From NCBI GenBank assembly GCA_963663385.2, contig CAXXXD010000004.1, positions 1,135,761-1,199,760 on the forward strand: a DNA stretch of 64,000 bases. The letters are read 5' to 3'. Origin of the DNA: Oceanispirochaeta sp. (GTDB lineage: Bacteria > Spirochaetota > Spirochaetia > DSM-2461). Below the pieces are notes generated by a model. That model was not told the DNA's origin and ran no database searches. It saw only the letters and a list, made by a program, of their open reading frames with translations. The translations under genes were made by a program, and so were the position numbers. Below are positions 41,850 to 61,188 of this stretch, one piece after another (the stretch's first letter is position 1; every line of letters begins with the position of its first letter).

Positions 41850-41880
41850 TACCTTGTTCAAGAGATAATAAGTTATATTC
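41850..41880 (+). other. Candidate attI-like site / 5' boundary of the cassette array
   Basis: GTTATATTC at 41872 is the 9-bp complement of GAATATAA|C closing the first cassette; no attC hairpin seen upstream. Confidence 0.55.
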
Positions 41881-41921: not shown

Positions 41922-42794
41922 ATGTTAATGTCTTTAGAATTAACAATTTTAGCTGATACAAATTCAAAAATTGGAGAAGAATATAAAACAAATGGAGTTT
42001 CTTATTTAATCGAAATATATAATGATGAAAATTCAATAGAAATACTTTTTGATACAGGGTATGATGGAAAGCAATTAATTAATATTGCTGGAAAACTCAA
42101 TAAAGATTTATCAAAAGTTAATAATATAATCTTAAGTCATGGCCATTTCGATCATACTAATGGACTCTCAACTGTTCTTCATTCAAATAAAAATAAGCCG
42201 AAAATTTACTGCAATGAAAATATTTTTTACAAAAAAATACTAAATTATAATACTCCTGATGCACGGGATATTGGTATTACTGCAAATAATGAGATTAAAT
42301 TCATACAGAACAATACAAACATTCAATATATTAAAGAGAATATGGAAATATTTCCAGGAGTCTGGACCATATCAAATATTCCCAGAAATATTGAAACAAA
42401 TACAATTTCAGGAAATTTAACGAATGTATATAGGGAAAATCCTGATGGAGATTATATCACGGATCCTATAGATGAAGATTCATCTCTACTCATAGAGCTA
42501 AATAAAGAAGAATTATTTCTTATCATTGGTTGCGGGCATAGCGGTATTAAAAATACTATCAAACACATTAATGACAATTTCAACGGAAAAAAAATAATCG
42601 GGATTGTAGGAGGATTACAACTTCATGATAAAGATATTAAGCAAATTGAAGATGTATATTCGTACATTAATAAGTTAAATTTAGAATATTTCTGTCCTAT
42701 TCATAGCACTGGAGAAACAGCAATTAGTTTATTTAAAGAAAATATGGGAAAAGAATTTATAAGTGGTGGGGTTGGAACTGTAATATCAATATAA
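41922..42794 (+). CDS. MBL-fold metallo-hydrolase (COG1237-like), gene cassette 1
   Basis: LFDTG, SHGHFDHTNG, GCGHSG, HSTG; very AT-rich; attC R'' starts a few bp after the stop. Confidence 0.85.
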   Translation: MLMSLELTILADTNSKIGEEYKTNGVSYLIEIYNDENSIEILFDTGYDGKQLINIAGKLNKDLSKVNNIILSHGHFDHTNGLSTVLHSNKNKPKIYCNENIFYKKILNYNTPDARDIGITANNEIKFIQNNTNIQYIKENMEIFPGVWTISNIPRNIETNTISGNLTNVYRENPDGDYITDPIDEDSSLLIELNKEELFLIIGCGHSGIKNTIKHINDNFNGKKIIGIVGGLQLHDKDIKQIEDVYSYINKLNLEYFCPIHSTGETAISLFKENMGKEFISGGVGTVISI

Positions 42795-42807
42795 AATCGG
42801 AATATAA

Positions 42808-44796
42808 ATCGGGTAGCCGGAGGCTTTTAACCTCCAGCCCCCACACCACCCTGCATGCGGGTCCGCACAGGGCGGTTCACTCCATGGAGCAAACGAAACT
42901 ATAATTTGATCATGTGTAGCCCTGGATTTTACACCAGAGGGCCTTAATATTGATCAATCCTTGCTCTTCCAACCATTTATTGGACATAGCGGCATTGGTT
43001 GCATAGCCTTTTGACAGATGCCAGTAGGACTTACTACTTGCTCCTGTCATAATGGCAAAATCTTTCGGAATACCCAGCTCCATCAGTTTCCTGACTTTTG
43101 TTCTGGGGTAACGCCACTGTTTCCAGTAGCACATACGGATTCTTCTTCTCAGCCATTCATCAATTGATTGTAGAGGTCTGTAATATTGGGAAATACCATA
43201 ATAGTTCATCCACCCCCGGATATACTCGTTAAGTTTCCGGAATCGATATTCCATTGATACCCCCCAAGACCGTCTTGTCAAATGCTTTAACTGATATTGA
43301 AACTCCCGAAAGGATGATTCAGTCCATCGGATTTTCTTACCCTTGAAAGTGAATCCCAGAAAACTGCATTCGGAGATTTTACACACCTTGCTTTTCTTCT
43401 GGTTTACAACCAATTTTAACCTGCGACTGAGATAATCACTTATTTCAGTCAATATAGCTTTTCCATCACACAGGCGTTTTGATACAATTAATGCATCATC
43501 TGCGTAACGTGCAAAGCACAGGTTTCTCCGTTCCAACTCCTTATCGAAATTATCAAGAAGGATATTGGAAAGTAGAGGTGATAACGGGCCTCCTTGAGGA
43601 GTCCCGATTTCAGTAGGGATTTTAATCCCATCCTTGTCCATAATACCGGCTCTCAGGTAGCGGCCAATCAATTTCAGGACTGATTTGTCCCGGACTTTCT
43701 TAGCCACACAATGCATCAGAATATCGTGATTTACCGTATCAAAGAACTTTTCCAAGTCCAGATCAACTGCATACTTGTATCCCGATTTAACATAGGTATT
43801 TACCTGTCGTACTGCTCCGTGAGCCGATCTTCCCGGCCTGAATCCAAAACTGCTTTCCGAAAAATCCGAATCGAATAGAGGATTCAAAACCTGTGAAATA
43901 GCCTGTTGGATAACCCTGTCTAAAATAGTGGGAATACCCAGCATTCGCATACCTCCGGATCTCTTGGGGATTTCCACCCTGAGCACCGGAGAGGGTACAT
44001 AGTACCCCAAAAGCAAAGCTTGCTTGATTTTACTCCATCTTCTGCGTAGATATTCCGGAAATTTCTCAATAGTCATGCCATTGACTCCCGGACTGCCGCC
44101 ATTGCGTTTGACCTGTTTCCAGGCCTTACGCATGTTTTCAGATGATAAAATCAAATCCATCATAGAATCGTTCAAGGCTGGTTTCTCCATAATTCGCCAA
44201 AAGTTATTTCGGCCAGTGCTAAAATTGTTCCTTTGAGAACCATAAGGCTCCTCCTTGTGAAATGTTCAGGCCTTCACCGTGAACCGGACATTACTCCGGG
44301 CGTTGGTTACTATGCCTTCTGCTGACTTCTGCCTGCTAATCAACGAGATTGCTCCCGTTGATGCTATACCGTGCTTTTAAACCTGTGACGACTTATTTGT
44401 ACTCAAGATAATCTTGCTCATTTCCAGAGTGTCACCCTCTGAAAAGCCGGGGATTGGTTTTCCGGTTCCCTACCGGATTCTCAGTTTAAAAGAACACATC
44501 ACCGCCCCGCAGACAGATCTCCCCGAATAAGACTGTACACTGTCCCCGGACAACCCTGTGATTTACCCTATTCCATACCCACGGGGCATCGTCATCATTG
44601 GCTGACTCGCCTCTGGAACTGAGCCTTCTATCACATTCTTGTACATGGGCTCCCGGTTTTGCATTCCGGCTTCCTCCAGACATTCCCTCGCGGAAATGCC
44701 CTTGCCTTCAGCTAACAGTTGGTATAGCATGTTCACTATACGTGGGCACCTGTAGAGGACTTTCACCTCATTAGCGTACAGCCATGTCGGGCGTAC
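42808..44796 (-). mobile_element. Group II intron, class IIC-attC type
   Basis: 5' GTACGCCCGACATGG; 3' domain V/VI GAACCGCCCTGTGCGGACCCGCATGCAGGGTGGTGT...CTACCCGAT with CGC triad; inserted antisense in the attC R'' box. Confidence 0.92.
42910..44190 (-). CDS. ltrA: Group II intron reverse transcriptase/maturase, no endonuclease domain
   Basis: R.LGIPT..DR..QQA, SFGFRPGRSAH.A, DLEKFFD, GTPQGGPLSPLLSN, RYADD, FLGF, GWMNYY. Confidence 0.95.
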   Translation of the reverse strand: MEKPALNDSMMDLILSSENMRKAWKQVKRNGGSPGVNGMTIEKFPEYLRRRWSKIKQALLLGYYVPSPVLRVEIPKRSGGMRMLGIPTILDRVIQQAISQVLNPLFDSDFSESSFGFRPGRSAHGAVRQVNTYVKSGYKYAVDLDLEKFFDTVNHDILMHCVAKKVRDKSVLKLIGRYLRAGIMDKDGIKIPTEIGTPQGGPLSPLLSNILLDNFDKELERRNLCFARYADDALIVSKRLCDGKAILTEISDYLSRRLKLVVNQKKSKVCKISECSFLGFTFKGKKIRWTESSFREFQYQLKHLTRRSWGVSMEYRFRKLNEYIRGWMNYYGISQYYRPLQSIDEWLRRRIRMCYWKQWRYPRTKVRKLMELGIPKDFAIMTGASSKSYWHLSKGYATNAAMSNKWLEEQGLINIKALWCKIQGYT

Positions 44797-44892
44797 CAAT
44801 CAAATGCAACTGTCAACTTTTTTGTCATAGTTTTTGAGTGCTCAAAAACTACGCCAACCCTACGGGACAAAGTTGCAGCTGATTTGGGCGTT

Positions 44893-46683
44893 GAGACTGT
44901 AGAAAAAGTCACCTTTTCTACAGCTCTCAGCCAAAACATGGTAAAATTCTATAAAAGGGAGGTTTTCAATAATGGCCAGATATAAAGAGTATTCTTATAC
45001 CCAGACAATGATGATCCCCGTAAGCTTTGAAAAACAGATTTTACCAGGAACATTCGAATATACATTATGCCATCTGATAGACAATCAAATAGATATGTCC
45101 GCATTTGAAAACCATTACGAAAATGATGAAACAGGAGCACCGGCTTATGACCCAGCAATCCTTTTAAAAATAGTCCTTTACGCCTATTCAAAAGGCATAA
45201 ACAGCAGCAGAAAAATTGAACAGTTATGCCGGGAGAATATCGTCTGTATGGCACTGGCTGCCGATTCCAGACCCCACTTTACAACCATTGCCGATTTTAT
45301 CTCTTCCCGTCATAAAGAGTGCCAAACCCTATTTACCATGATACTCTCTGTTTGCTACACACAGGGACTGATCGGCAAAAACATGTTTGCCATTGACGGC
45401 TGCAAGATCTCCTCAAACTGTTCAAAGGAATGGAGCGGAACCAAAGCGGAACTATTTGCCAAAACAAAGAAAATAGAGAAATCCGTAAACTATCTGATTG
45501 AAAAACACAAGAATACGGATGCCAGTTGGGAAGATAAAGAGCAGCGTAAAAAAGAAAAGAAAGCCATCAAAAAGCTAAAGGCTAAAACAGATAAAATCTA
45601 CAAATGGCTGGATACCCATTATGACCGGTTCGGTAGTCAGGATCAGCCCATCAAAAGCAATATTGTGGATAACGAAAGCGCCAAAATGTCTACCGGACAC
45701 GGTGTTATACAGGGTTACAACGGCATTGCCGCCGTAGATGACAAACATCAGCTGATCATATTTGCCGACACCTACGGCGATGCAAACGAATCAGGACACC
45801 TTACAGAGATTCTGGAAGGAATTGATAAGAGCTGTAAAAACTCCCATATAGATGATGAGATCTACAAGCATGTGACGGTCACAGCGGATACAGGATTCCA
45901 TAATAAAAAGAACATGCAAATGATCAGCGAGAAGAAGATAGATGCCTATATCCCGGACAATCAGTTCAGGAAAAGGCATGTTGCCTTCCAGGATGCCGGA
46001 AAATACAAAAAGAAAGTCGCCAACTGGAAACCGGAAAAAGGAAAGCACTATTTTCGTCCGGAAGACTTTTATATGGATACGGCAAACAACCAACTGATCT
46101 GTCCTGCCGGACATGCCATGTGGCTGAAATCCCCCAACTTCAGAAGCAATGACGGTCGGTATACCGGAAAATCTTATCAAGGGCATATACGCAATTGTCG
46201 CGACTGTAAACTTCGTTCAAAATGTATAAGAAAGGAAACGACAAAAGCCCGTCAGGTTGCCATACTAAAGGAAGTGCCGGAAAGAAAAGGGAGCAATCCC
46301 ATGGCCGATATGAAGGAGAAAATTGATACGCCCTATGGACGATCAGTTTATGCAAAACGGATGAGTACGGTAGAACCTGTATTCGGACATATTGCCGGAA
46401 TGAAAAAGCTGAATCGCTTTACTTTACGGGGTACGGAAAAGGTCCGGACACAGTGGTTGTTGTACTGTATGGTGCATAATATCGGGAAAATCCAGCAGTA
46501 TAGTGCGTAGGAATACGGAAAAGTGCTAAAGAATGGGTATAGCGTTGGATAAAACCAATTGTAGTTGAATATAGCCGGTTTTAATCGGATTGAATATTGA
46601 AATTAATGAGATGATTGATTTTTCGGAATGAGTGCTTTCAAGGGAGCCTTGAAAAAACCCAGTTTGAGTTTTTCTACAGTCTC
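44893..46683 (+). mobile_element. IS1182-family element, copy 1 (1791 bp)
   Basis: TIRs GAGACTGTAGAAAA / TTTTCTACAGTCTC; GTT duplicated on both sides. Confidence 0.92.
44972..46510 (+). CDS. IS1182-family transposase
   Basis: GAPAYDP..LLK..LYAY..G..SSR.IE, P.F.TI..F, AIDG.K, GYN, ADTGF, CPAG, R..TVEPVFG. Confidence 0.93.
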   Translation: MARYKEYSYTQTMMIPVSFEKQILPGTFEYTLCHLIDNQIDMSAFENHYENDETGAPAYDPAILLKIVLYAYSKGINSSRKIEQLCRENIVCMALAADSRPHFTTIADFISSRHKECQTLFTMILSVCYTQGLIGKNMFAIDGCKISSNCSKEWSGTKAELFAKTKKIEKSVNYLIEKHKNTDASWEDKEQRKKEKKAIKKLKAKTDKIYKWLDTHYDRFGSQDQPIKSNIVDNESAKMSTGHGVIQGYNGIAAVDDKHQLIIFADTYGDANESGHLTEILEGIDKSCKNSHIDDEIYKHVTVTADTGFHNKKNMQMISEKKIDAYIPDNQFRKRHVAFQDAGKYKKKVANWKPEKGKHYFRPEDFYMDTANNQLICPAGHAMWLKSPNFRSNDGRYTGKSYQGHIRNCRDCKLRSKCIRKETTKARQVAILKEVPERKGSNPMADMKEKIDTPYGRSVYAKRMSTVEPVFGHIAGMKKLNRFTLRGTEKVRTQWLLYCMVHNIGKIQQYSA

Positions 46684-46724
46684 GTTATATTGTGGTGTGC
46701 CCCACTAAAAGTGGACAACTCTAA

Positions 46725-47055
46725 CTATGCACTTAAAGCCATTGCTTCCTCGAATTCCGCTGGACTCTGATAACCGATAGAAGAATGCTTTCGTTTACGG
46801 TTATAGAATACCTCGATATATTCGAAAATGCCAGCACGAGCTTGTTCACTGTTCTGATAATTGCTTGGGTAGATCAGTTCAACTTTAGATCTTGAAAAGA
46901 ATGACTCCATAGGAGCATTATCCCAACAGTTTCCTTTTCGGCTCATACTCAAAGAACACCCCCATGATTGAGCAAAATCTATATATTTTTGTGATCGATA
47001 TTGTACTCCTCTGTCAGAGTGTAGAATTGGACCTTCACCTTTTTTAATCTTTCTC
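46725..47055 (-). pseudogene. IS3 orfB, C-terminal fragment
   Basis: LHSDRGVQY, SMSRKGNCWDNAPMESFF, YNRKRKHS. Confidence 0.9.
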
Positions 47056-47102
47056 GTAAGCGGTAATTCTTCCCACATTGACAGCATTTTAGGACTGATG
47101 GA

Positions 47103-48665
47103 TCAGATTGCAATATCTTCAGCAGTTAAGTTATAGGGAAGTAATTTTTCATAATCACTCTGTTTTTCACAGCAGGGCAATTCCCGGAAGATAAAGTACA
47201 AGTAAGCATAAACTGGAAGATTGTTCATCTTCGCAGATTCAACGAGACTGTACAGAATTGCCGATGATTCAGCACCTTTCGGGCTTCCGGCAAAAAGCCA
47301 GTTTTTTCTCCCGATTACGAAGGGTCTGATTGCATTTTCAGCGCTATTGTTCGAAGGAGTCAAAACAGGATTTTTCAGATATAGAACCAACTGCTCCCAG
47401 TTGCTCAATGTATACTTCATCGCCTTACCGAACTCTAAAGAAGGAGGTACTTGAGGATAAAGCTTCGTCAGTTTTTTCTGTAACTTATCTAGTATCGGTT
47501 CTGCTCTATTTTGTCGCTGTTTATGAAACCCTTTTAGCGAATAATTATCCCGTAATGATTCCAGTTCAAACAGATCCTTTATCAGGTCGAGAATTTGCTT
47601 TGCTTCTGCATCTTTTTTCTTGGTTGATTCCCAATATTGGAAGAACTTTCTTCTGGCATGGGCCCAGCATAAGACATGCTTTATATCTCCATCAACTTTT
47701 TTTCGGGCAGTATGGTAGGCCTCAAAATCATCAGTTTGAACCCAGCCAGAGTAATTTTCCAAGAAATCCAACGGAATTGCATGGGATCGGCCTTGCTCAT
47801 ACTGAAATATGACACATTTTTTATCGGGATCTCCTCTGAGAAAGACCCACATCCATGATTTATCTGAAGCTTTTCGTTTCGGTTCCTTTAGAACCTGAAC
47901 TCTCGTCTCATCGGCATTAATAATGGAACCGGATTTAATGTTTTCTTTCAGCAAATCATATAGAGGCTTACATGCCGTTGCCGATTTTATCGTAAGATTG
48001 CTCAATGTCGCCCGGGGGATCGGTATGCCTATCTGGTTTAACCGTTTTGATTGCCTGTAGAAAGGAAGAGCGAACTCAAACTTTTCGCTTATACTCCAAG
48101 CGAGCAGGCTTTCATCGGCAATACTGCCCGCGACCAGATGCTTTGCTCCTTCTGCGGTCTGTACAGCAGCTTCATCAAGAGTCGTCCCTTCACAATTCTT
48201 GCAGGAGTACTTTTTTCTACGTTCCTGAATAACAACGACTTTTGACGGAATAATTTTTGCTCTCTCGGAAACATCTTCACCGATACAGGTCTTTTCTGTT
48301 CCGCAGGCACAGATCTTATCTTTATCCGGAATATCATATTCCACGATCTCTCTCGGCAGATCTGCCGGCAGAGGTTTCCGGCCGGATTTTTTAATATTTT
48401 TCTTGTAGGAACCGACCTCAACCGTTTCAATAACATTTTTCTCCTGCTCTTCATCATTCTGAGCAAAAGCACTATCTTCCGCTTCATTGAAGAGAGAAGC
48501 TTGTTTCTTATCTTCGGCAGTTATCTTCTCTGATTTTGTTCCAAAGTGCAGGAGGTTCAGTTTTGCTACTTGCTCCTGGAGAATGGCATTAAGTCTTTTC
48601 AGTTCAGCAATTTCTATTTTTTGTGCATCAAGTTGTTCTCTTAAATGCTGTTCTTCATTCTCCAT
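47103..48665 (-). CDS. tnpC: IS66 transposase TnpC
   Basis: GRKPLP..LPR, zinc finger, ADET, CWAHARRKF, NN.AENAIRP..GRKNWLF. Confidence 0.95.
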   Translation of the reverse strand: MENEEQHLREQLDAQKIEIAELKRLNAILQEQVAKLNLLHFGTKSEKITAEDKKQASLFNEAEDSAFAQNDEEQEKNVIETVEVGSYKKNIKKSGRKPLPADLPREIVEYDIPDKDKICACGTEKTCIGEDVSERAKIIPSKVVVIQERRKKYSCKNCEGTTLDEAAVQTAEGAKHLVAGSIADESLLAWSISEKFEFALPFYRQSKRLNQIGIPIPRATLSNLTIKSATACKPLYDLLKENIKSGSIINADETRVQVLKEPKRKASDKSWMWVFLRGDPDKKCVIFQYEQGRSHAIPLDFLENYSGWVQTDDFEAYHTARKKVDGDIKHVLCWAHARRKFFQYWESTKKKDAEAKQILDLIKDLFELESLRDNYSLKGFHKQRQNRAEPILDKLQKKLTKLYPQVPPSLEFGKAMKYTLSNWEQLVLYLKNPVLTPSNNSAENAIRPFVIGRKNWLFAGSPKGAESSAILYSLVESAKMNNLPVYAYLYFIFRELPCCEKQSDYEKLLPYNLTAEDIAI

Positions 48666-48704
48666 ACGGGGAATTCTATCAAAGTTTCTATAATTATAAA
48701 ATCT

Positions 48705-49049
48705 CTAAATACGGGAATATGATAATTTTTTATGCGCTTTGAAAAAGTCTATTCCCGTCAGGAGCATTTTCAATTCATCCATGCTGATCTCTTTAGCATC
48801 TTCATCTGTTTCCGGCCAGGGATATCTGTTCTCTTCCAGTCTCTTCTGCCAGAGACAAAAACCGGTATTATCCCAGTAGACAATTTTCAGAAGTTTTCTC
48901 TGCCGGTTACAAAAGAGGAATAGCGATTTGGCGAATAAATCATGATTCATTTCATTCTGGATAAACAGAGATAATCCGTTGATCGCTTTTCTTAAGTCTG
49001 TCGTGCCGGGTCTCAGAAAGATCCGGTATTCGTTCAGGTCAACAAACAT
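48705..49049 (-). CDS. tnpB: IS66 accessory protein TnpB
   Basis: TDLRK.I.GL, LFLFCNR.R..LKI.YWD..GF.LW.KRLE. Confidence 0.95.
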   Translation of the reverse strand: MFVDLNEYRIFLRPGTTDLRKAINGLSLFIQNEMNHDLFAKSLFLFCNRQRKLLKIVYWDNTGFCLWQKRLEENRYPWPETDEDAKEISMDELKMLLTGIDFFKAHKKLSYSRI

Positions 49050-49345
49050 TACAACTCTCTCAGAATCTTCAGAAGATCTATCAGGGATTGCCTGTTATAA
49101 CCTGATGCCAGATCCAATGAGAAATCCTTGTATCTGAGTATCATTGTGGGGTTTTGTGGCTGTAATACCGGGGCTTTCTGTTTGATTTCAATAAAACTGC
49201 TTTTCTTTAATTTTTTTCGATTCTTGTAGAAAGATGTATAGTGAACTCCTTTATCTGCGCAGAACTCAGAAATTGTTTTCCCGCTCTGTTTTTGTTCTTC
49301 GATTAATTCAGGCCAATTCCAGTTGGTCATATTAGGTTCCTCCAT
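49049..49345 (-). CDS. tnpA: IS66 accessory protein TnpA
   Basis: W..LIEEQ..SG.TI.EFC HTH; first gene of the element. Confidence 0.85.
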   Translation of the reverse strand: MEEPNMTNWNWPELIEEQKQSGKTISEFCADKGVHYTSFYKNRKKLKKSSFIEIKQKAPVLQPQNPTMILRYKDFSLDLASGYNRQSLIDLLKILREL

Positions 49346-49407
49346 GATTTTTCATGGAGTATATAATCATTTCGAAATCACGCAAGATGGAGAGAATTAC
49401 CGCTTAC

Positions 49408-49641
49408 TCTTTCTCCTGGCAAAAGCAACAGATAATGCTTCAATAACTAATTTCTCAGTCATGTCGTCGCCTAGAGCCCAACCAATGATCTTTCTGGAAT
49501 ATAAGTCCATTACAGTTGCGAGATACATCCAGCGATTATTAACCCAGATATAGGTGATGTCTGAAGTCCATTTCTGATTAGGGCCGGTGGCTGTGAAATC
49601 TCTCCAAAGCAAATTATCAGAAACGTTGTTCATTGCCAGAC
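49408..49641 (-). pseudogene. IS3 orfB, middle fragment
   Basis: NLL.RDF.A..PNQKW.SDITY, YLA.V.DLYSR.IIGW. Confidence 0.9.
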
Positions 49642-49765
49642 TGTGAGCAACGGTGCTAGAGTTCCTACATTCAGCGGCGAAAAAGTTCCGCTTTTACTGA
49701 CATAAAAAGGGGCAAATATCCTAAAGTAGAGATTACCACACCTACTACAAAAGGAACCTGCCCCT

Positions 49766-51049
49766 ATGTGTCAAAAGGAAGATCGCATGCATGTAGCACG
49801 CATCATGGCCAACGAAGGCCATACTCAAAAGTATATCGCTGAGTATCTTGGTGTCAGCGACCGGATGGTAAGGAAATACCTGAATCCGGACTTCAGAACC
49901 CGTCCCAGGAAATCCCGGGAAAGCATCCTTAAACCATTCTACCCCATAATAGAAGATACCTTGGAAAATGATCCATACTTCAACCTCGTTTATCTTCATG
50001 AGAGACTACAAAACTCCGGTTATTCTGGAAAAATGACAATCCTACGTGACTATGCCCGGAAGTACAGGAAGAAACTGATTGAGAAAGCAGTAATCCGCTT
50101 TGAAACAGAGCCGGGAAGACAGGCCCAAGTTGACTGGAAAGAATGCGGAAAAATGGAGATTGATGGCAAACTTCAGAAAGTATATGCATTTGTCATGCTG
50201 CTGGGATATAGTAGGATCCCGTTTGTCCTTTTCTCCTTGGATATGACCTCGCCGACATTGCTCCAAGCCCATCTGATGGCATTCCGGTTCTTCGGTGCTG
50301 TTCCGAAGGAAATTCTTTACGACAACATGAGAACAGCCTGGTACAACAACGGCGGTGTCTGGCACGTGAACTCAAAGCTCCTGGCCTTTGCTTCAGCCTG
50401 TGGTTTCACTCCTCTTCGCTGCCAAGTTCGTAGACCGCAAACTAAGGGAAAGGTAGAGCGTTTTATCGGTTACCTGGGCCACAACTTCTTGATCCGTGAA
50501 GAAGCAATGAAGAGCCGCTCAATAAACGATTTAAACCTGACTGTCTCCAAATGGATCAAAACAGTAGTGGAACAGCAGATGAGCCAATTTAAACAGACTC
50601 GAAAAGAGAGATTTGAGTACGAAAGGCAGTTTATGAACCCTTGGAACCCTGAGGCAGCTCCAGATGTAAGGCTGGTTAAAGAACTGCTTGTCTCCAGAGA
50701 AGGGTTTATTCGTTTTGAATCAAACAAGTACAGCATTCCCGCGGACTTCATAGGACAAGTTGCGACACTGAAAGTAGATACGCTGGCAAGAACTGCCGCT
50801 ATCTTCATTGATGGGGCCCCTGTTAGAACCTTCAAGCTTCTGACAAAAGGTGCGAAATTAGAATCTATCCGAAAGATTGATACCGACTCACTGGTTAAAC
50901 GCTGGAAGAAAGAGAATCGCATGACAAAAAGGAATGTCGTTGCCAGTGTCCCGGAAATAAAGAATACTCCCAGGTCATCATTGATGCATACAGAGGTTGA
51001 TACACGCCATCCTGAAAGCTACGACAAGCTTATGGGGGTAACAGCATGA
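49766..51049 (+). CDS. istA: IS21 transposase IstA
   Basis: RFET.PG.QAQVDW, P.EILYDN, PQTKGKVER. Confidence 0.95.
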   Translation: MCQKEDRMHVARIMANEGHTQKYIAEYLGVSDRMVRKYLNPDFRTRPRKSRESILKPFYPIIEDTLENDPYFNLVYLHERLQNSGYSGKMTILRDYARKYRKKLIEKAVIRFETEPGRQAQVDWKECGKMEIDGKLQKVYAFVMLLGYSRIPFVLFSLDMTSPTLLQAHLMAFRFFGAVPKEILYDNMRTAWYNNGGVWHVNSKLLAFASACGFTPLRCQVRRPQTKGKVERFIGYLGHNFLIREEAMKSRSINDLNLTVSKWIKTVVEQQMSQFKQTRKERFEYERQFMNPWNPEAAPDVRLVKELLVSREGFIRFESNKYSIPADFIGQVATLKVDTLARTAAIFIDGAPVRTFKLLTKGAKLESIRKIDTDSLVKRWKKENRMTKRNVVASVPEIKNTPRSSLMHTEVDTRHPESYDKLMGVTA

Positions 51050-51810
51050 ATGTACTGCAGGAGACCATAGAGATCAGGATGAACGACTTAGGGCTGGAGT
51101 TTATGGCGGCGGGGTTGGAGAGCTTCCTTGAAGCTCAATCTCACACAGAAAACACTCTCTCTCAGTCAATTGCAGACCTATTGGAACTGGAGTACGTTCC
51201 CCGTAAGGAGAGAGCTGCAAAAAGCCGTCTGAAGCTCTCTGGAATGCCATCGATCAAGCTATTAGAGGACTTCGACCTATCCTGGTTGAAGGGAGGATTG
51301 ACCGCTGCTCAACTGGCAGAGTTTTCTAGTCTGGCTTTCATTGAAAGAAAGGAAAATCTAGTACTGATGGGGCCAAGTGGATTGGGTAAAACCCATTTGA
51401 TGCTAGCTCTGGCTCATAAAGCCTGTCAGAATGGTTATACTGTATGGTATACAAGCTGCATCGATCTGATGGAGAATCTGACCCATGCCCGGGAGCAGGG
51501 GCGGTTGAAGCGACGGCTTACCTGGCTTAGAAAGCCTCATCTCATCCTTATCGATGAAGTTGGCTACGAGAACCTGACGAAAGAACAGGCCAACTTGTTT
51601 TTTCAGATTGTAAACACCCGCTATGAACAAGGCAGTATGATCATCACCACAAACAAGTCTTTCGGTCGTTGGGCTGAGATTCTGGATGATGAAGCCATTG
51701 CGACAGCGACTATAGACAGGCTCCTTCACCATGCACATGTCCTGAGTCTTAAAGGGGATTCATACCGGATGAAAGACCGGTTGAAAATAGGGATCGTTGA
51801 TCCTGTTTAA
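51046..51810 (+). CDS. istB: IS21 helper ATPase IstB
   Basis: GPSGLGKTHL, LILIDEVGY, TIDRLLHH, G.SYR. Confidence 0.95.
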   Translation: MNVLQETIEIRMNDLGLEFMAAGLESFLEAQSHTENTLSQSIADLLELEYVPRKERAAKSRLKLSGMPSIKLLEDFDLSWLKGGLTAAQLAEFSSLAFIERKENLVLMGPSGLGKTHLMLALAHKACQNGYTVWYTSCIDLMENLTHAREQGRLKRRLTWLRKPHLILIDEVGYENLTKEQANLFFQIVNTRYEQGSMIITTNKSFGRWAEILDDEAIATATIDRLLHHAHVLSLKGDSYRMKDRLKIGIVDPV

Positions 51811-51872
51811 TTTTACCCAGAAGCGGAACTTTTAAACCGTTGAAATGAGGAACTTTTTCACCGCTGTTGACA

Positions 51873-52194
51873 CCAGACTGTGGCGTGGATATTTAAATCC
51901 TCGCCCGTTGTGAGCTTTTATCCCTTTATCCTTCATGATTTGTGCTATAAGGTTTTCTGAGCAGGAATAACCGAGGTCTTTAAGCTCTGATGCGATGCGA
52001 CGAGATCCATAAGCAGCTTTGAAGCTCTCATAAGTATTTTTTACTAAGATTTCCAGGCGGTTCTTTCTTTGCAACATCTTACCTGGTGTCCAGTGAGTCC
52101 ATTTGTAGTAGCCAGATCTGGATACATCGAGCATACGGCACATTAAGGTGATAGAAAATTGCTTTTTGTGTTCTCTTATCATGGCGTATTTCAC
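51873..52194 (-). pseudogene. IS3 orfB, N-terminal fragment
   Basis: MCR.L.VSRSGYY.W, YGSRRI..EL. Confidence 0.88.
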
Positions 52195-52499
52195 TTCTGG
52201 CCGTTGGCGAAATACGCTGCGGCTTTTTTTAAGAAATCTACTTCTTCCTTGAGCTTCTTATTCTCTCTGCGAAGTTTTCTAACCTCTTCACTTTCATTCT
52301 TGGAATAGTCGACTCCGTCCATTGTGTTGAACTGTTTATCTGATAACCGGGTAAATTGTCTTTTCCAGTTATAGATTTGCTGAGCGCTGATCCCTAGCTC
52401 CTCAGCGACCTTTCTAGCTGAATTACCCTCTTGCTCTGATCGTCTCACCGCCTCTCTACGGAAGTCCTCCGCATAGGCCTGAACTTTCTTTCGCGACAT
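52191..52499 (-). CDS. IS3 orfA (HTH), with an A7G -1 frameshift motif at 52223-52230
   Basis: FRREAV, VAEELGIS...IYNWK, LKEE..FLKKAAAYFA. Confidence 0.9.
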   Translation of the reverse strand: MSRKKVQAYAEDFRREAVRRSEQEGNSARKVAEELGISAQQIYNWKRQFTRLSDKQFNTMDGVDYSKNESEEVRKLRRENKKLKEEVDFLKKAAAYFANGQK

Positions 52500-52786
52500 T
52501 TAAACACCCTCCATAATCAATCATAATCTAACTATAGTAGGTGTCCACTTTCTTTGGGGCACTGTGATCGAACACATTTTGTACTTCTGGTTCTTTCATA
52601 ATTGCCAGATGATTTAGTAGGTTTTAGGGTTTTGATACGGGTTGATTGATGCTCACACTACACTGATTATCTATCTTTGACGCCGGTTGCGGCTGGCAGA
52701 AGTGGAAATAAGGGCATTCGCCTTCACCTACGTTTATTAAGATATTCTTGCCTGATATGGTATCGGTGATTTACAAAATGCTGTAG

Positions 52787-52961
52787 ACATAACAAGAAAA
52801 TGATACTGTCGTCGCTACAGATCACATTTCTTGCAGAGATACAGAATGCTGATAAATAGTTCTTTCTTAAAAACAAATTACTGTTTAAAATAAGTCTGCA
52901 AGAAAAGCGCCTGTACCTGTCCTTCGGCCAGGCCGCTCCGCAGCATATTTTGGCGTTATAC
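52787..52961 (+). other. attC site 2 (175 bp)
   Basis: ACATAAC AAGAA AATGATACTG...CAGCATATT TTGGC GTTATAC; internal stem TTTCTTGCAGA/TCTGCAAGAAA. Confidence 0.75.
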
Positions 52962-52980
52962 GGATAAAGGGTAATAAATA

Positions 52981-53913
52981 ATGGATTTTGAAATTGTCAT
53001 TGATGAAAGTTTTATACATCTCTGTAGTGATGATACATTAGAGCCAATCGAGAATAAGTATGTTCTATCTCTAATAAATGATTACGAAGATGGTAAATGG
53101 AGATATGGCAAATTTCATAACTTTATTTGGGATAATATTGCTGAAACGTCCTTATCATATTCTGAGAGAGAGAGTCTAATCGATCAACCGCATTCAAAAT
53201 TAGTAGCGGCAGCACAAAGTTTACGTTTAACTGATGCTGATAAAGATGACATAGGTAAAGGTAGTGAATTAGCTGAAATAATACTCTATGGAATTATGAA
53301 ACACCATTTTAATGCTTTACCAGTAGTTCCAAAAATATTCTATAAACAAAATTCTCAGGATAATGCTAAAGGTGCTGACTCTGTTCATATTGTTGTCGAT
53401 AAAGATGAAAACTTTACAATATGGTTTGGAGAAGCAAAATTTTTTAATGATATTAGTAATACTAGATTAGGAAATATTATAATCTCAGTAGGAAACTCTT
53501 TACGTACGGATAAGCTGAAAAGAGAAAATAGTATAATAACAAATCTTAATGATTTAGATCCCTTAATTGATAACAAAGAACTGACAGAAGAAATTAAGAG
53601 ATGTTTATCATACAAGAATTCTATTGATGAATTGAAGCCTAAATTACATATTCCTATATTGCTTTTACATGAATGTGAAATAACGAAATTGAACACAAGT
53701 TTATCACAGCAACACATTGATGAGATTAAAGAATATCATTCAGATAGAGCAAATGCATACTATAAAAAACATATTAAAAAACTATCTGAATTACATTTAT
53801 ATAATGAAATTACATTTCATCTTATTTTGTTTCCAGTTCCTTTGAAAGAAAAGATTGTAAATAGATTTACGAGAACAGTGAAAAACTATAAAGACGAGTA
53901 TGAAAATGATTGA
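52981..53913 (+). CDS. hamA: Hachiman anti-phage protein HamA (DUF1837 nuclease)
   Basis: G.ELAEIILY, KGADSVH, WFGEAKF motifs; overlaps the helicase gene. Confidence 0.85.
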   Translation: MDFEIVIDESFIHLCSDDTLEPIENKYVLSLINDYEDGKWRYGKFHNFIWDNIAETSLSYSERESLIDQPHSKLVAAAQSLRLTDADKDDIGKGSELAEIILYGIMKHHFNALPVVPKIFYKQNSQDNAKGADSVHIVVDKDENFTIWFGEAKFFNDISNTRLGNIIISVGNSLRTDKLKRENSIITNLNDLDPLIDNKELTEEIKRCLSYKNSIDELKPKLHIPILLLHECEITKLNTSLSQQHIDEIKEYHSDRANAYYKKHIKKLSELHLYNEITFHLILFPVPLKEKIVNRFTRTVKNYKDEYEND

Positions 53914-55987
53914 TGTCTTTGAGAAATTACACATAATAAATGACAATATTACAAATAACCAGTATGATTTAGCTCGCAATCGAATAATAATTCTTCTTGG
54001 ATATATCCACAATAGAAGACTAGATTTCCCACCAGCTTTAAATCATTTCATCAGACAAGTTGGACTTTATCCCTATTTAAATATTGATAGTGCTTCATGG
54101 CAAGAAAAGTTTATATATGAAGCTTTTAAAGTTGATGTAGGAGATCAAAAACTAACGTTACATAGGGAACAATCGAATCTTCTTAAACAACTTATTGAAG
54201 GTAAAGATATTGCAGTAAGTGCACCAACAAGTTTTGGTAAAAGTTTTGTAATAGATTCATATATTGCAATTAAAAAGCCAAAGAATGTATTAATAATAGT
54301 ACCAACAATAGCATTAACTGATGAAACAAGGCGGAGAATACAGAATAAATTTGGTACTGAATATAAAATTATAACAACTACTGAAATCACTCTTGCAGAG
54401 AAGAACATATTTATTTTTCCACAAGAAAGAGCTGCTCATTATTCTGATAAAATTGAGAATTTAGATATTCTTATTATTGATGAATTTTATAAGGCAAGTA
54501 AAAAATATGATAAAGAACGTTCTCCATCTTTATTAAGAGCTATAGTAAAATTAAGCAAAAAAGCAGATCAAAGATATTTTTTAGCACCAAATATTAATAA
54601 ATTAAATGATAGCTTATTCACGAAAAATATGGAATTTATATCGCTTGATTTCAATACTGTCTATTTAAAGAAATATGATATGGTTGAAGAAATAAATGAA
54701 GATTATACAAAGAGCGATGCATTACTTGATATTTGCAAAAAATATAAGGGGAAGACATTAATATATGCAGGTACATATGCGTGCATTAAAGAAATATCAA
54801 ATTTATTTATAGAAGCATTACCTCTAAAGAATAGTCGTTTATTAAAAGATTTCGCTGATTGGCTTGACTCTAACTACACAAAAAATTGGCAACTAACAAG
54901 TCTAATTCGTAGAGGTTGTGGTATTCATAATGGAAAGTTACATCGTTCTTTAAGTCAAATACAAATAAAATTGTTTGAAGAAATTACTGGTTTATCAAGA
55001 ATTATTTCGACCTCTTCAATAATTGAAGGAGTTAATACTTCTGCTGAAAATATAGTTCTATGGAGAAATAAGAACGGAAATCAAAAACTTAATGATTTCA
55101 CATATAAAAATATTATTGGTAGAGGTGGGAGGATGTTCAAGTACTTTGTTGGGAATATTTTCCTTCTTGAAAGTCCACCAGAACAGGAAGAGAATCAGTT
55201 AGATCTTGAATTTACTGAAGAAATAGCATTAAGCGTTGATGAAGAACTATATCAAACGGAGTTAACAAAAGAGCAAGTTGCAAAAATCATTGAGAAGAAG
55301 GATGAGATAGATAATTTAATAGGTCATGAATCTTATTTGAAACTTGATAGAGATGGAATCTTTAATGATAGTGACACTACAACAATTATAAATATAACTA
55401 AGGATCTTCTTAATAACCCGGAACAATGGAATGGATTTACATATTTAAATTCAAGTGATCCGTCTCAATGGGAAAGTTTACTCTATAAAATAATTAAACT
55501 TATGCCTGGTTCAGTTGGTACCACATATAAGAAGTTTGTGAACTTTGTAATGATTATTTCTGATAACTGGAATAAATCAATGCAAGAATTATTAAATGAA
55601 TTATCAAGAGTTGATATTAGCATAGATGAATTTTTTGATTTAGAAAGAACCGTAAGTTTTAAATTTTCTTCCTTTCTAAACGATTTAAATTCTATTCAGA
55701 AAGAAATATTCAAGACAGAGAAATATGATATTTCTCCTTTTATTGCTAAGGTATCTCATGTATTTTTACCTCCTAATGTTTATATATTAGAGGAGTATGG
55801 TCTCCCAAGAATGATTTCCAAAAAGATACATAAGTCTAATGTTTTAAATTTGGAAGAAAGAATTGAAATCCATGATTTATTGAAAGAGTTCAATAGTATT
55901 GGATATGCTGAATTGATCAAAAAAACAAATAGAATAGAAGAATTTGATAAATATATATTACAACATTTTTACGATGGTTTACGATGA
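53900..55987 (+). CDS. hamB: Hachiman SF2 DEAD/DEAH-box helicase HamB
   Basis: SAPTSFGKS, VPTIAL, IIDEFY, HNG.L, TSSIIEGVNT, N..GRGGR. Confidence 0.85.
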   Translation: MKMIDVFEKLHIINDNITNNQYDLARNRIIILLGYIHNRRLDFPPALNHFIRQVGLYPYLNIDSASWQEKFIYEAFKVDVGDQKLTLHREQSNLLKQLIEGKDIAVSAPTSFGKSFVIDSYIAIKKPKNVLIIVPTIALTDETRRRIQNKFGTEYKIITTTEITLAEKNIFIFPQERAAHYSDKIENLDILIIDEFYKASKKYDKERSPSLLRAIVKLSKKADQRYFLAPNINKLNDSLFTKNMEFISLDFNTVYLKKYDMVEEINEDYTKSDALLDICKKYKGKTLIYAGTYACIKEISNLFIEALPLKNSRLLKDFADWLDSNYTKNWQLTSLIRRGCGIHNGKLHRSLSQIQIKLFEEITGLSRIISTSSIIEGVNTSAENIVLWRNKNGNQKLNDFTYKNIIGRGGRMFKYFVGNIFLLESPPEQEENQLDLEFTEEIALSVDEELYQTELTKEQVAKIIEKKDEIDNLIGHESYLKLDRDGIFNDSDTTTIINITKDLLNNPEQWNGFTYLNSSDPSQWESLLYKIIKLMPGSVGTTYKKFVNFVMIISDNWNKSMQELLNELSRVDISIDEFFDLERTVSFKFSSFLNDLNSIQKEIFKTEKYDISPFIAKVSHVFLPPNVYILEEYGLPRMISKKIHKSNVLNLEERIEIHDLLKEFNSIGYAELIKKTNRIEEFDKYILQHFYDGLR

Positions 55988-56091
55988 CCGTATAACAATC
56001 GCATGAAACTGAATTTTTCTTTGTCATGCTTTTTGCCTGCGCAAAAATCCTGCCAACCTTACGGGACGAAAAATCAGCTTATGCGGGCGTT

Positions 56092-57882
56092 GAGACTGTA
56101 GAAAAAGTCACCTTTTCTACAGCTCTCAGCCAAAACATGGTAAAATTCTATAAAAGGGAGGTTTTCAATAATGGCCAGATATAAAGAGTATTCTTATACC
56201 CAGACAATGATGATCCCCGTAAGCTTTAAAAAACAGATTTTACCAGGAACATTCGAATATACATTATGCCATCTGATAGACAATCAAATTGATATGTCAG
56301 TTTTTGAAAACCACTACGAAAATGATGAAACCGGAGCTCCCGCCTACGACCCTGCCATCCTCTTAAAAATAGTCCTTTACGCCTATTCAAAAGGCATAAA
56401 CAGCAGCAGAAAAATTGAACAGTTATGCCGGGAGAATATCGTCTGTATGGCTCTGGCTGCCGATTCCAGACCCCACTTTACAACCATTGCCGATTTTATC
56501 TCTTCCCGTCATAAAGAGTGCCAATCCCTCTTTACCATGATACTCTCTGTTTGCTACACACAGGGACTGATCGGCAAAAACATGTTTGCCATTGACGGCT
56601 GCAAGATCTCCTCAAACTGTTCAAAGGAATGGAGCGGAACCAAAGCGGAACTATTTGCCAAAACAAAGAAAATAGAAAAATCCGTAAACTATCTGATTGA
56701 AAAACACAAGAATACAGATGCCAGCTGGGAAGAGAAAGAGCAGCGTAAAAAAGAAAAGAAAGCCATCAAAAAGCTAAAGGCTAAAACAGATAAAATCTAC
56801 AAATGGCTGGATACCCATTATGACCGGTTCGGTAGTCAGGATCAGCCCATCAAAAGCAATATTGTGGATAACGAAAGCGCCAAAATGTCTACCGGACACG
56901 GTGTTATACAGGGTTACAACGGCATTGCCGCCGTAGATGACAAACATCAGCTGATCATATTTGCCGACACCTACGGCGATGCAAACGAATCAGGACACCT
57001 TACAGAGATTCTGGAAGGAATTGATAAGAGCTGTAAAAACTCCCATATAGATGATGAGATCTACAAGCATGTGACGGTCACAGCGGATACAGGATTCCAT
57101 AATAAAAAGAACATGCAAATGATCAGCGAGAAGAAGATAGATGCCTATATCCCGGACAATCAGTTCAGGAAAAGGCATGTTGCCTTCCAGGATGCCGGAA
57201 AATACAAAAAGAAAGTCGCCAACTGGAAACCGGAAAAAGGAAAGCACTATTTTCGTCCGGAAGACTTTTATATGGATACGGCAAACAACCAACTGATCTG
57301 TCCTGCCGGACATGCCATGTGGCTGAAATCCCCCAACTTCAGAAGCAATGACGGTCGGTATACCGGAAAATCTTATCAAGGGCATATACGCAATTGTCGC
57401 GACTGTAAACTTCGTTCAAAATGTATAAGAAAGGAAACGACAAAGGCCCGTCAGGTTGCCATACTGAAGGAAGTGCCGGATGGAAAAGGGAGCAATCCCA
57501 TGGCCGGTATGAAGGAGAAAATTGATACGCCCTATGGACGATCAGTTTATGCAAAACGGATGAGTACGGTAGAACCTGTATTCGGACATATTGCCGGAAT
57601 GAAAAAGCTGAATCGCTTTACTTTACGGGGTACGGAAAAGGTCCGGACACAGTGGTTGTTGTACTGTATGGTGCATAATATCGGGAAAATCCAGCAGTAT
57701 AGTGCGTAGGAATACGGAAAAGTGCTAAAGAATGGGTATAGCGTTGGATAAAACCAATTGTAGTTGAATATAGCCGGTTTTAATCGGATTGAATATTGAA
57801 ATCAAAGAGATGAATGATTTTTCCAAATGAGTGCTTTCAGGGGAACCTTGAAAATACCCAGTTTGAGTTTTTCTACAGTCTC
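56092..57882 (+). mobile_element. IS1182-family element, copy 2 (1791 bp)
   Basis: Same TIRs and length as copy 1; GTT duplicated. Confidence 0.92.
56171..57709 (+). CDS. IS1182-family transposase
   Basis: Near-identical to 44972-46510. Confidence 0.93.
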   Translation: MARYKEYSYTQTMMIPVSFKKQILPGTFEYTLCHLIDNQIDMSVFENHYENDETGAPAYDPAILLKIVLYAYSKGINSSRKIEQLCRENIVCMALAADSRPHFTTIADFISSRHKECQSLFTMILSVCYTQGLIGKNMFAIDGCKISSNCSKEWSGTKAELFAKTKKIEKSVNYLIEKHKNTDASWEEKEQRKKEKKAIKKLKAKTDKIYKWLDTHYDRFGSQDQPIKSNIVDNESAKMSTGHGVIQGYNGIAAVDDKHQLIIFADTYGDANESGHLTEILEGIDKSCKNSHIDDEIYKHVTVTADTGFHNKKNMQMISEKKIDAYIPDNQFRKRHVAFQDAGKYKKKVANWKPEKGKHYFRPEDFYMDTANNQLICPAGHAMWLKSPNFRSNDGRYTGKSYQGHIRNCRDCKLRSKCIRKETTKARQVAILKEVPDGKGSNPMAGMKEKIDTPYGRSVYAKRMSTVEPVFGHIAGMKKLNRFTLRGTEKVRTQWLLYCMVHNIGKIQQYSA

Positions 57883-57926
57883 GTTATGCCAAAAAAAAGT
57901 ACTCATACTAAGAGGTGTGGACAAAA

Positions 57927-59660
57927 ATGTTAAACTCAAATATCCTCAAACAAAAATTGGCTGCAATTGATGGGCAGGATTATGCAGGCTATCAGTCTCT
58001 TTTGGGTACATACGATTTCAATCTATTTACGCTGATTATTCAGCAAATACCCAAAGATCCATACGCTCCACCGCACACCGGTATTTACCGGATTCAGGTT
58101 CGACGCAAAGATCACTGCATTATTCGTTTGAAAATTGAATCAAAAGTGCAAAGGATTGTATGCGCTGATTTCCTGGCAAGATATTTTTTCGATTCCAGTC
58201 AACGAATTTCCAAAGGTATTCGCGGAACAGGATTCAGCGGAATTATTACAATTAATCAACCGGGTCAAGCTATTTTAGAAAGAAACAGCGTGGTCATCAC
58301 GGATGACATTATCGAAATACGTTGCTTTTTAGGGCTTCCTGCGGATGGCAGAAAAATTATTTCCAAAATTGCCGAAAACATGCTTTTCAATGAGCTTCCA
58401 AAAATTGTCAACGAATCGTTGTTACATGAAAATATTGACCATGAGGCGTTAACTGCACACATCGAGGTAGCAGAAGATGCCGAGTATCTCCGCAATAAAC
58501 TTCATTCTCTCGGACTCATCGCTTTTATTGCAGACAATTCAATCCTTCCTCGCGAAAGCGGTCCAAGTGATAAACCGATGTCCAATAAATCAGCAATCCC
58601 TTTTTCTACGCCAGATAGTCTCATGAAGGAAATAGAACTTCCACATGCCGGAAAGATAACAGGTATGGGTGTCCCCAAAGGGATTACGTTAATTACCGGC
58701 GGAGGTTACCATGGGAAATCGACATTACTCAATGCCCTGGATGTCGCTATATATGATCACATTCCGGGAGATGGCCGGGAACGATGTGTTTCAAATGCAC
58801 AAACAGTCAAGATACGGGCATATAGCGGACGATCTGTCGTAAAAACAGATATATCACCTTTCATTAAGAATCTTCCATTCCAAAAAGATACGACATCGTT
58901 TTGCACAGAGAATGCCAGTGGTAGTACCTCACAAGCCGCAAATATTATAGAGGCTATTGAAGTAGGTGCTGAGGTATTGTTAATGGATGAAGACACATGC
59001 GCAACGAATTTTATGATCCGTGACAGCAAAATGCAGCAATTGGTAAACAAAGAAGATGAGCCAATAACGACTTTTATTGATAAGGTAAAGCAGCTTTATT
59101 TTGAAAAGAATATCTCAACCGTTCTGGTTTTGGGAGGTGTGGGTGATTATTTCGATATTTCTGATTTGGTTATCCAGATGAAAAATTATCAACCATTAGA
59201 TATGACTTCCGAGGCGCATAAGATTGCGGAATTGTTTCCAGCGAAACGTAAGGTTGAAGATGAAGCTTACCCATTTCATATTCGTGAGCGAATTCCGGTA
59301 TCTGAGAGCATCGATCCACTCAATGATTATGGAAAATTCACTATCTATGCGAAAGAGACTCATCGGTTAAATTTTGGGAAACAGGTGATTGATCTCACGG
59401 ATGTGGAGCAGCTTATGGAATTATCTCAAACAAAAGCTTTAGGGTATGCCATTGAATACGCAAAAAAAATCATGGATAAAGAAATGTCACTGCGTGATAT
59501 TGTTAATCGCGTAACAAAAGAAATTGACGAGCATGGCATTGATGTTATCAGCGATAAGATTTCTGGTCATTTTGCTTGGTTTAGAGCGCTTGAATTAGCT
59601 TTTACTTTGAACCGTCTCAGAGGTCTTGATGCCATTCAAAAAGATGTTGATGAAATCTGA
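57927..59660 (+). CDS. Predicted ABC-class ATPase (COG3044 / PF09818-like), gene cassette
   Basis: DPYAPP, LPR.SG..D.PM, GGGYHGKSTLL, H..GDGRE, NASGSTSQA, LLMDEDTCATNFM.RD. Confidence 0.88.
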   Translation: MLNSNILKQKLAAIDGQDYAGYQSLLGTYDFNLFTLIIQQIPKDPYAPPHTGIYRIQVRRKDHCIIRLKIESKVQRIVCADFLARYFFDSSQRISKGIRGTGFSGIITINQPGQAILERNSVVITDDIIEIRCFLGLPADGRKIISKIAENMLFNELPKIVNESLLHENIDHEALTAHIEVAEDAEYLRNKLHSLGLIAFIADNSILPRESGPSDKPMSNKSAIPFSTPDSLMKEIELPHAGKITGMGVPKGITLITGGGYHGKSTLLNALDVAIYDHIPGDGRERCVSNAQTVKIRAYSGRSVVKTDISPFIKNLPFQKDTTSFCTENASGSTSQAANIIEAIEVGAEVLLMDEDTCATNFMIRDSKMQQLVNKEDEPITTFIDKVKQLYFEKNISTVLVLGGVGDYFDISDLVIQMKNYQPLDMTSEAHKIAELFPAKRKVEDEAYPFHIRERIPVSESIDPLNDYGKFTIYAKETHRLNFGKQVIDLTDVEQLMELSQTKALGYAIEYAKKIMDKEMSLRDIVNRVTKEIDEHGIDVISDKISGHFAWFRALELAFTLNRLRGLDAIQKDVDEI

Positions 59661-59664
59661 ATGA

Positions 59665-59685
59665 GGCACAACCCAGGCGTTATAT
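59665..59685 (+). other. Internally deleted attC remnant (R'' and R' only)
   Basis: GGCACAAC CCAGGC GTTATAT, 4 bp after the ATPase stop; GGCACAAC is a 7/8 complement of GTTATGCC that opens this cassette. Confidence 0.55.
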
Positions 59686-61077: not shown

Positions 61078-61188
61078 GCATAACAATGATTTGAAATTGT
61101 AAGGCAGGCTGATCATATTCTGTGCTGTCTGCTACGCAGGCACAGAATACGCCAGCTAGACAGCTCACAATATAAAACGGCGTTATGC
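61078..61188 (+). other. attC site (111 bp), intact
   Basis: GCATAAC AATGA TTTGAAATTGT...ACAATATAAA ACGGC GTTATGC; inner stem TATTCTGTGC/GCACAGAATA. Confidence 0.85.

Follow-up and report, generated by a model that had tools for sequence, protein, structure and literature searches.

An IS1182-Family Insertion Sequence Probably Specialised on Integron attC Sites in Oceanispirochaeta sp.

The present analysis concerns a 64,000-nucleotide stretch of DNA from Oceanispirochaeta sp. (hereafter, the window; assembly GCA_963663385.2, contig CAXXXD010000004.1, positions 1,135,761 to 1,199,760), in which two copies of an insertion sequence (IS) of the IS1182 family lie within an integron cassette array. 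According to the data presented below, this IS probably comes from a widespread IS1182-family lineage specialised on integron attC sites. The insertion is base-exact: the GTT/AAC triplet of the R' box is duplicated, the rest of the site is left intact, and each clade keeps to one polarity. The attC specialists already described are the IS1111-attC group and the group IIC-attC introns (PMC3001079, PMC11187229, PMC7923331, PMC12444791). Full-text literature searches, whose scope left aside most subscription papers, ISfinder, TnCentral and supplements, retrieved no description of an IS1182 insertion at attC; a lineage of this kind is apparently undescribed.

The Insertion Sequence and Its Transposase

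The two copies, each of 1791 bp, occupy positions 44893-46683 (copy 1) and 56092-57882 (copy 2), both on the + strand. They differ at 34 positions (98.1% identity) and share the perfect 15-bp inverted repeat GAGACTGTAGAAAAA at both ends. Each has GGGC-GTT as its left flank and GTT-AT as its right flank. The left GTT is the R' triplet of an attC site (44890-44892, attC1; 56089-56091, attC2), and the right one begins the following cassette, which behind copy 1 (46684-46686) is a non-coding cassette of about 230 nt and behind copy 2 (57883-57885) the next cassette of the array. These coordinates and flanks agree with the first-pass annotation, which had placed both copies at the same R' position of two related attC sites, in the same orientation and with GTT duplicated.

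Between the terminal inverted repeats, and leaving non-coding ends of 79 and 173 nt, lies a single open reading frame (ORF) for a DDE-type transposase of 512 aa (44972-46510 in copy 1, 56171-57709 in copy 2, both +), which reaches 286.2 bits with the curated IS1182 model NF033551 (cut-off 270). The residues D142, D233, D306, Y460, R463 and E468 do not vary across 26 relatives; candidate catalytic residues of the DDE type are among them, and the last three form the Y-R-E helix motif, a mark of the IS1182 family. The ORF is intact in five copies of the genome. The intact ORFs, together with the empty and filled alleles described below, suggest transposition activity, and the IS is probably an autonomous DDE element of the IS1182 family, a judgement that we make jointly with that on its attC specialisation.

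The predicted structure of the transposase (predicted local distance difference test score, pLDDT, 79.8) finds its best Foldseek match, a weak one, in the Tn5 transposase (PDB 1muh; E 5e-4, template-modelling score ~0.35, 8% identity, root-mean-square deviation 15), which is consistent with an RNase H-fold DDE enzyme. Tn5 itself has little target specificity and produces a 9-bp duplication. A sequence search of solved structures retrieved no significant IS1182 relative (best E 0.33), and a consensus scan of the IS ends found no outward promoter or terminator. The left end (56092-56127 and 44893-44928) folds on itself, the terminal repeat being followed by its inverted copy (z -4.6); this fold is fainter or missing in more distant relatives.

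The Target Sites in the Window

The attC sites were scored with a home-made covariance model (R1); it was built on the top strand of five IS-free attC sites of the same genome (labelled G000, with positions given as C1, C2 and C3) and misses distant attC classes. The target of copy 2, attC2 (55990-56091, +), runs from the R'' box GTATAAC to the R' GTT and scores 81.7 bits. The stretch 55990-56095 folds at -21.4 kcal/mol (z -4.6) on the bottom strand vs. -14.1 kcal/mol (z -1.3) on the top strand, and the bottom-strand hairpin has two bulged bases; attC2 thus has the R'' and R' boxes, the bottom-strand folding and the extrahelical bases of an attC site, as does attC1 if its intron is disregarded.

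In attC1, a group II intron (42808-44796, - strand) divides the R'' box into ATATAA at 42802-42807 (+) and a C at 44797. The remainder of the site (44797-44892, +), ending at the R' GTT, scores 88.8 bits and its bottom strand folds with a z of -5.2. The attC hairpin previously assigned to 44797-44892 is confirmed in sequence and fold, but it is only part of a site whose R'' box lies mostly beyond the intron. The two targets match at 69 of 96 aligned positions, and attC1 is identical at 92/96 to an IS-free attC at C1:30211-30106.

The intron reaches 401 bits with TIGR04416 (reverse transcriptase/maturase at 42910-44190) and contains three Rfam group II domains; it is inserted antisense in R'' and is probably of the group IIC-attC type. 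Its insertion 5-mer is TTGTT, with the junction one base earlier than the TTGT/T given in PMC7923331. Hence, attC1 is occupied at both ends by two unrelated parasites. The genome as a whole holds seven full-length copies of the intron, of which five occupy R'' boxes of attC sites and two lie outside attC.

Two further attC sites of the window, at 52787-52961 (+, 175-nt class, 38.1 bits) and 61078-61188 (+, a training site of the model; fold z -3.05), had been reported as spared. Both are indeed IS-free, but the class of the former is occupied at C3:734547 (138/173 positions identical to 52787), so that its sequence class is not the reason why 52787 is empty.

Census of the Genome

The covariance model finds 20 attC sites in the genome, all within four clusters. 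The IS complement comprises five full-length copies (one split by IS66), 92-98% identical to each other, one deletion derivative of 438 bp and several fragments. Among the six left ends with an intact flank, five adjoin one of the 20 attC sites at the same nucleotide, and all eight right ends are followed by GTTAT. With copies treated as independent, the probability of at least 5/6 at attC is 2e-19 against all 160,948 GTT triplets of both strands and 5e-10 against the 2,198 sites matching the best short motif. The flanks of the copies are all different, which bears out the earlier judgement that a segmental duplication was unlikely.

A seventh, decayed left end (C3:755303) also lies directly after an attC. 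It can be seen as one of two scars of old insertions at cassette starts, the other being a 34-bp right end at C3:759418-759451. One more match to the end pattern, at C2:1828760, lies in an unrelated coding stretch and was taken as chance. As for the arrays themselves, one attC at the head of the C3 array is inverted (C3:727743-727918). The five IS-hit sites fall in three arrays whose top strand is locally G-rich; none of the four model-detected attC of the intI-linked C2 array, which has the opposite skew and whose sites are all intron-split, carries the IS. The numbers are small.

Relatives and Controls

The comparison drew on 91 loci, found in the family, in the phylum, in a genome collection and in metagenomes, with transposase identities of 40-100%. 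Before counting, 16/91 loci without a called end, L089 (a spurious end) and the duplicates L034 and L035 were left out. GTT precedes 52/59 distinct left ends and follows 52/61 distinct right ends. Considering the 51 elements with two ends, 44 have GTT on both sides, 5 have AAC on both sides and 2 differ by one changed base. GTT was also read by hand at L016, L021, L042 and the right end of L051, which had not been called.

An earlier structural score was biased to the attC geometry of G000 (18/55 targets at its middle threshold) and was replaced by a box-based one; flanks shorter than 120 nt were left out of the structural scoring. A strict attC stem score of at least 8 is reached by 21/55 distinct targets vs. 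6/1500 genome GTT (0.4%), 11/1500 locus GTT (0.7%) and 6/1100 shuffles (0.5%). Restricting the analysis to elements of at least 55% identity (n=28), 20 targets pass either the covariance model or a stem score of 7. The occupied attC sites vary widely in sequence and length (57-173 nt). In the arrays of four other genomes (G369, G417, G011 and G002), all eight intact left ends adjoin covariance-model matches, so that the proposed check on the sites of other copies returned the identical offset at attC there and in 5/6 cases in G000. Moreover, the same arrangement of IS and attC is recognisable by eye on a Pseudoalteromonas replicon; a plasmid collection gave three matching records, none annotated at the site.

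As a control set, 31 loci were screened de novo for inverted repeats. GTT flanks were found in 0/13 distant IS1182 elements with an inverted-repeat call (at most 33.7% identity; two calls doubtful), whose targets were CTAG, A/T-rich and terminator-like, or other. A distant IS1182 element, L155 (G036:C1:1358755-1363200), lies inside a sequence similar to a CRISPR repeat, with ATTGAAAC as its end.

Orientation

Transposase gene and cassettes run in the same direction in the main clade. At eight loci the right end is followed by AAC, and the attC lies past it; 2/7 of those that could be scored pass the strict score (11.5 and 12). The six AAC loci included in the tree, obtained by a quick IQ-TREE search and midpoint-rooted without an outgroup, form two separate well-supported groups. 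On this tree, the polarity of insertion is fixed per clade and has changed at least twice. The fixed orientation claimed from the two window copies thus applies within a clade, but it is reversed in two others.

Empty and Filled Alleles and the Downstream Cassette

In the genome G369, one cassette-attC unit is present five times. Two units are empty, with one GTT followed by the next cassette, and three are filled by the IS; of the latter, two are flanked by GTT at each end, and in the third a deletion has removed the left junction. Set side by side, the empty and filled units are direct proof of the 3-bp duplication. Two of the IS copies were compared and are the same in sequence, although several positions distinguish their upstream units and their downstream cassettes have nothing in common, a pattern that fits repeated insertion better than copying. 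A different short cassette is also repeated five times in this genome.

The 7 nt after the IS resemble the next R'' box at 7/7, 6/7, 6/7 and 7/7 positions, which places the IS at the start of the downstream cassette. The attC upstream of an insertion retains its triplet, at a cost of up to four outer R-box pairs (0.3-1.6 kcal/mol; three sites). As far as the geometry is concerned, hitchhiking of the IS with a cassette would be possible, in line with the initial suggestion that the IS lies inside the downstream cassette and could be carried by excision; no instance was found, however, since the IS stands behind 0/4 attI-like sites and no repeated IS-plus-cassette unit was detected. Furthermore, the upstream site of copy 1 is split by the intron, so that its use by IntI is doubtful.

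The Integrase and the attI-Like Sites

The genome has a single intI (IntI, 381 bits, at C2:1688005), which does not adjoin the window array. This array is headed by an attI-like site (41850-41874, +, with GTT at 41872-41874) whose 25-mer is also found upstream of intI (C2:1687477) and at the head of two more arrays. We infer the attI label from the position of the 25-mer, and one integrase may serve the four arrays. Its copies, at 41850-41874 of the window, C1:37737, C2:1687477 and C3:727497, each head a cassette array, one of them beside intI. The targets of the IS lie in a co-oriented cassette array of an IntI-bearing genome; in the family, IntI is present in 9/10 genomes holding the IS vs. 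15/28 of those that do not, with related genomes not being independent. At two loci, L173 (G318:C10) and L174 (G253:C2), several IS copies, belonging to two types, lie in long palindromic repeats that resemble attC; TIGR02249 gives no integrase match in these genomes.

Other Features of the Window

The first cassette gene (41922-42794, +) encodes a protein of the metallo-beta-lactamase fold (Pfam PF00753, E 5e-9). Seven nucleotides past copy 1 begins an IS3-family element with IS66 and IS21 nested inside (46691-52567, -, according to Pfam). The non-coding cassette of about 230 nt with its 175-nt attC (52568-52790 in the window) recurs at seven other places in G000 and comes first behind three of the four attI-like sites. 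Between the IS-free attC at 52787 and attC2 lies a Hachiman hamAB anti-phage cassette (52981-55987, +; PADLOC, HamA E 6e-144 and HamB E 2e-233). The cassette after copy 2 carries an ABC-class ATPase gene (57915-59660), followed by a collapsed attC (59666-59685, +) with R''-like and R'-like boxes six bases apart and the interior gone, which was read from the sequence and not scored by the model. It fuses two ATPase cassettes, and the second gene matches PADLOC PDC-S27.

Evaluation of the attC Preference

Several observations weigh against a lineage specialised on attC. In the genome, the sixth copy (C3:287670) is off-target, after a response-regulator gene, with no model match and no convincing hairpin; relatives match the upstream gene alone (65-76%) and not the junction, so that no empty allele was obtained. 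Among the relatives, L129 lies off-target within an IS66 coding sequence; 34/55 targets fail the strict score, many of them perhaps attC sites of another geometry, to judge by eye, that are not counted; and 8/28 close targets (L013, L028, L031, L038, L050, L051, L076 and L077) fail both the covariance model and the stem score. No empty allele of either window site was found in other samples: for site 2, the 37 family genomes contain a single homologue of the downstream ATPase gene, with 75% identity and a position outside any cassette, and four sequencing runs gave the filled junction or no cover, with no joint bypassing the IS. In addition, TIGR02249 (E 1e-40) detects no IntI in three genomes that are rich in the IS (4-12 end matches) and belong to another spirochaete class. 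Lastly, all the data are surviving insertions, and selection inflates the attC preference, while what the transposase reads is something we infer from the sequences. On balance, the initial proposal, in which a DDE element has specialised on the crossover triplet of attC, holds as a strong, not absolute, preference.

The most serious competitor is a pure recognition of duplex sequence, approximately T-N-A-N6-Y-GTT-R over the L' and R' boxes, with attC sites being simply the best matches and the hairpin unneeded. A pyrimidine precedes GTT in 54/55 targets; T at -13 and A at -11 are present in 32/55 targets and in 22/28 of the close relatives; the off-target sites L031 and L129 bear the motif, and a clean duplication requires duplex DNA at the triplet. 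Nonetheless, the motif occurs 2,198 times in the genome (368 outside long ORFs), yet 5/6 copies are at attC, and the occupied attC sites have little sequence in common and range from 57 to 173 nt; a matrix built from 22 hairpin-positive targets placed 4/8 hairpin-negative ones above the 90th percentile of genome GTT, a mixed outcome. Overall, we consider this explanation unlikely. Guidance by the integrase, either through recruitment of the transposase by attC-bound IntI or through capture of an IntI-cleaved site, appears quite improbable. The duplicated triplet does include the IntI cleavage point (A/C of RYYYAAC; PMC7439510), and IntI is present in 9/10 family holders; on the other hand, the IS follows none of the four attI-like sites, TIGR02249 finds nothing in three genomes where the IS has 4-12 end matches, and the normal DDE ends with a 3-bp duplication differ from a single crossover.

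If the element had only a weak GTT preference and selection left survivors between cassettes, one could point out that long ORFs cover about 87% of the genome, that off-target copies exist and that survivors alone are visible. However, outside long ORFs there are 21,528 GTT and 4,001 YGTTR vs. about 21 attC sites, the offset and polarity at attC are exact, and other IS (IS3, IS66 and IS21) survive elsewhere in these arrays, at positions of no such kind, all of which makes this scenario highly improbable. Copying of IS-bearing units, by segmental duplication or by IntI moving IS-cassettes (genomic attG sites included), may be virtually dismissed, and as the main cause it is largely refuted: the seven right flanks searched in the genome are each unique, and no match among the seven others of the non-coding cassette behind copy 1 begins with the IS. 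The position of the IS at the start of the downstream cassette, with 7 nt matching the next R'', would agree with copying, as would the three G369 copies following the same attC and the ability of IntI to insert cassettes at GWT sites (10.1101/2022.09.11.507474); against it, the two compared IS copies of G369 have the same sequence but stand between differing upstream units and differing downstream cassettes, and no attC follows the off-target copy within L105.

A Possible Mechanism

According to PMC7439510, the IntI cut in the R box falls between A and C, and essential features of the site are the AAC triplet, the stem and the extrahelical bases. For the IS, the confinement of the duplication to R' suggests that both strand transfers strike the R' duplex, which, in turn, would imply that the folded R''/R' stem is not attacked; an attack on this stem would be expected to delete the hairpin, as IS1272 is reported to do (PMC4923244, PMC5678879). 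The IS inserts with a 3-bp staggered cut at the R' triplet; in the scheme that we favour for an attC-specialised element, the transposase most likely reads Y-GTT-R in duplex DNA and would be positioned by the L''/L' arm next to it, which probably forms an extruded hairpin or cruciform. Some sequence preference in the L' box may provide the asymmetry that sets the orientation. The insertion has a safe harbour between cassettes: no gene is struck, the crossover triplet of the upstream attC is kept, and the second GTT gives the downstream cassette its original start again.

A more comprehensive version of this reading is less likely than not. It depicts an old cross-phylum, single-protein DDE lineage that reads the folded attC arm without an RNA guide or helper, inserts at the crossover leaving the site usable and the IS cassette-borne, has switched polarity at least twice and colonises attC-like arrays without a recognisable IntI.

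Comparison with Known Elements and Significance

In principle, three kinds of known elements can be compared with this IS. IS1272/TnSha1 of staphylococci also have an IS1182 transposase, terminal inverted repeats and targets that form stem-loops; their targets are terminators without a primary-sequence consensus, part of the hairpin is deleted, there is no duplication and both orientations occur (PMC4923244, PMC5678879). The IS described here differs from them in that GTT is duplicated, the hairpin remains whole, one polarity is used per clade and the target is attC; neither the missing duplication nor the partial loss of the hairpin was found.

The IS1111-attC elements (ISPa21, ISPst6 and ISKpn4) are likewise specialised on the attC sites of cassette arrays, with fixed position and orientation, and they have a DEDD transposase, a seekRNA guide and sub-terminal repeats, and insert antisense near the 5' end of attC (PMC3001079, PMC11187229). 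Unlike them, our IS has terminal repeats, a 3-bp duplication and an insertion at the 3' (R') crossover, in sense in the main clade, and its transposase is of the DDE type, with DDE/IS1182 models alone matching it. The group IIC-attC introns (S.ma.I2 and its relatives) are also attC parasites that use the hairpin of the site; they are retroelements that base-pair with the target, antisense in R'', with an unrelated chemistry (PMC3001079, PMC7923331).

In this context, the IS represents a third specialised parasite of integron arrays besides the RNA-guided IS110-type group and the group II introns, mechanistically unrelated to them, with classical DDE chemistry operating at the opposite end of attC, exactly at the crossover triplet. 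It makes testable the question of how a lone DDE transposase achieves base-exact and oriented targeting of sites that are largely defined by structure, and the two clades with reversed polarity offer natural controls when the determinant of targeting is mapped. Furthermore, an IS end right after GTT can be used in annotation to flag attC sites and arrays, including those of genomes in which no integrase can be detected. Should the specificity prove transferable, the element would be a compact tool for site-specific insertion into cassette arrays.

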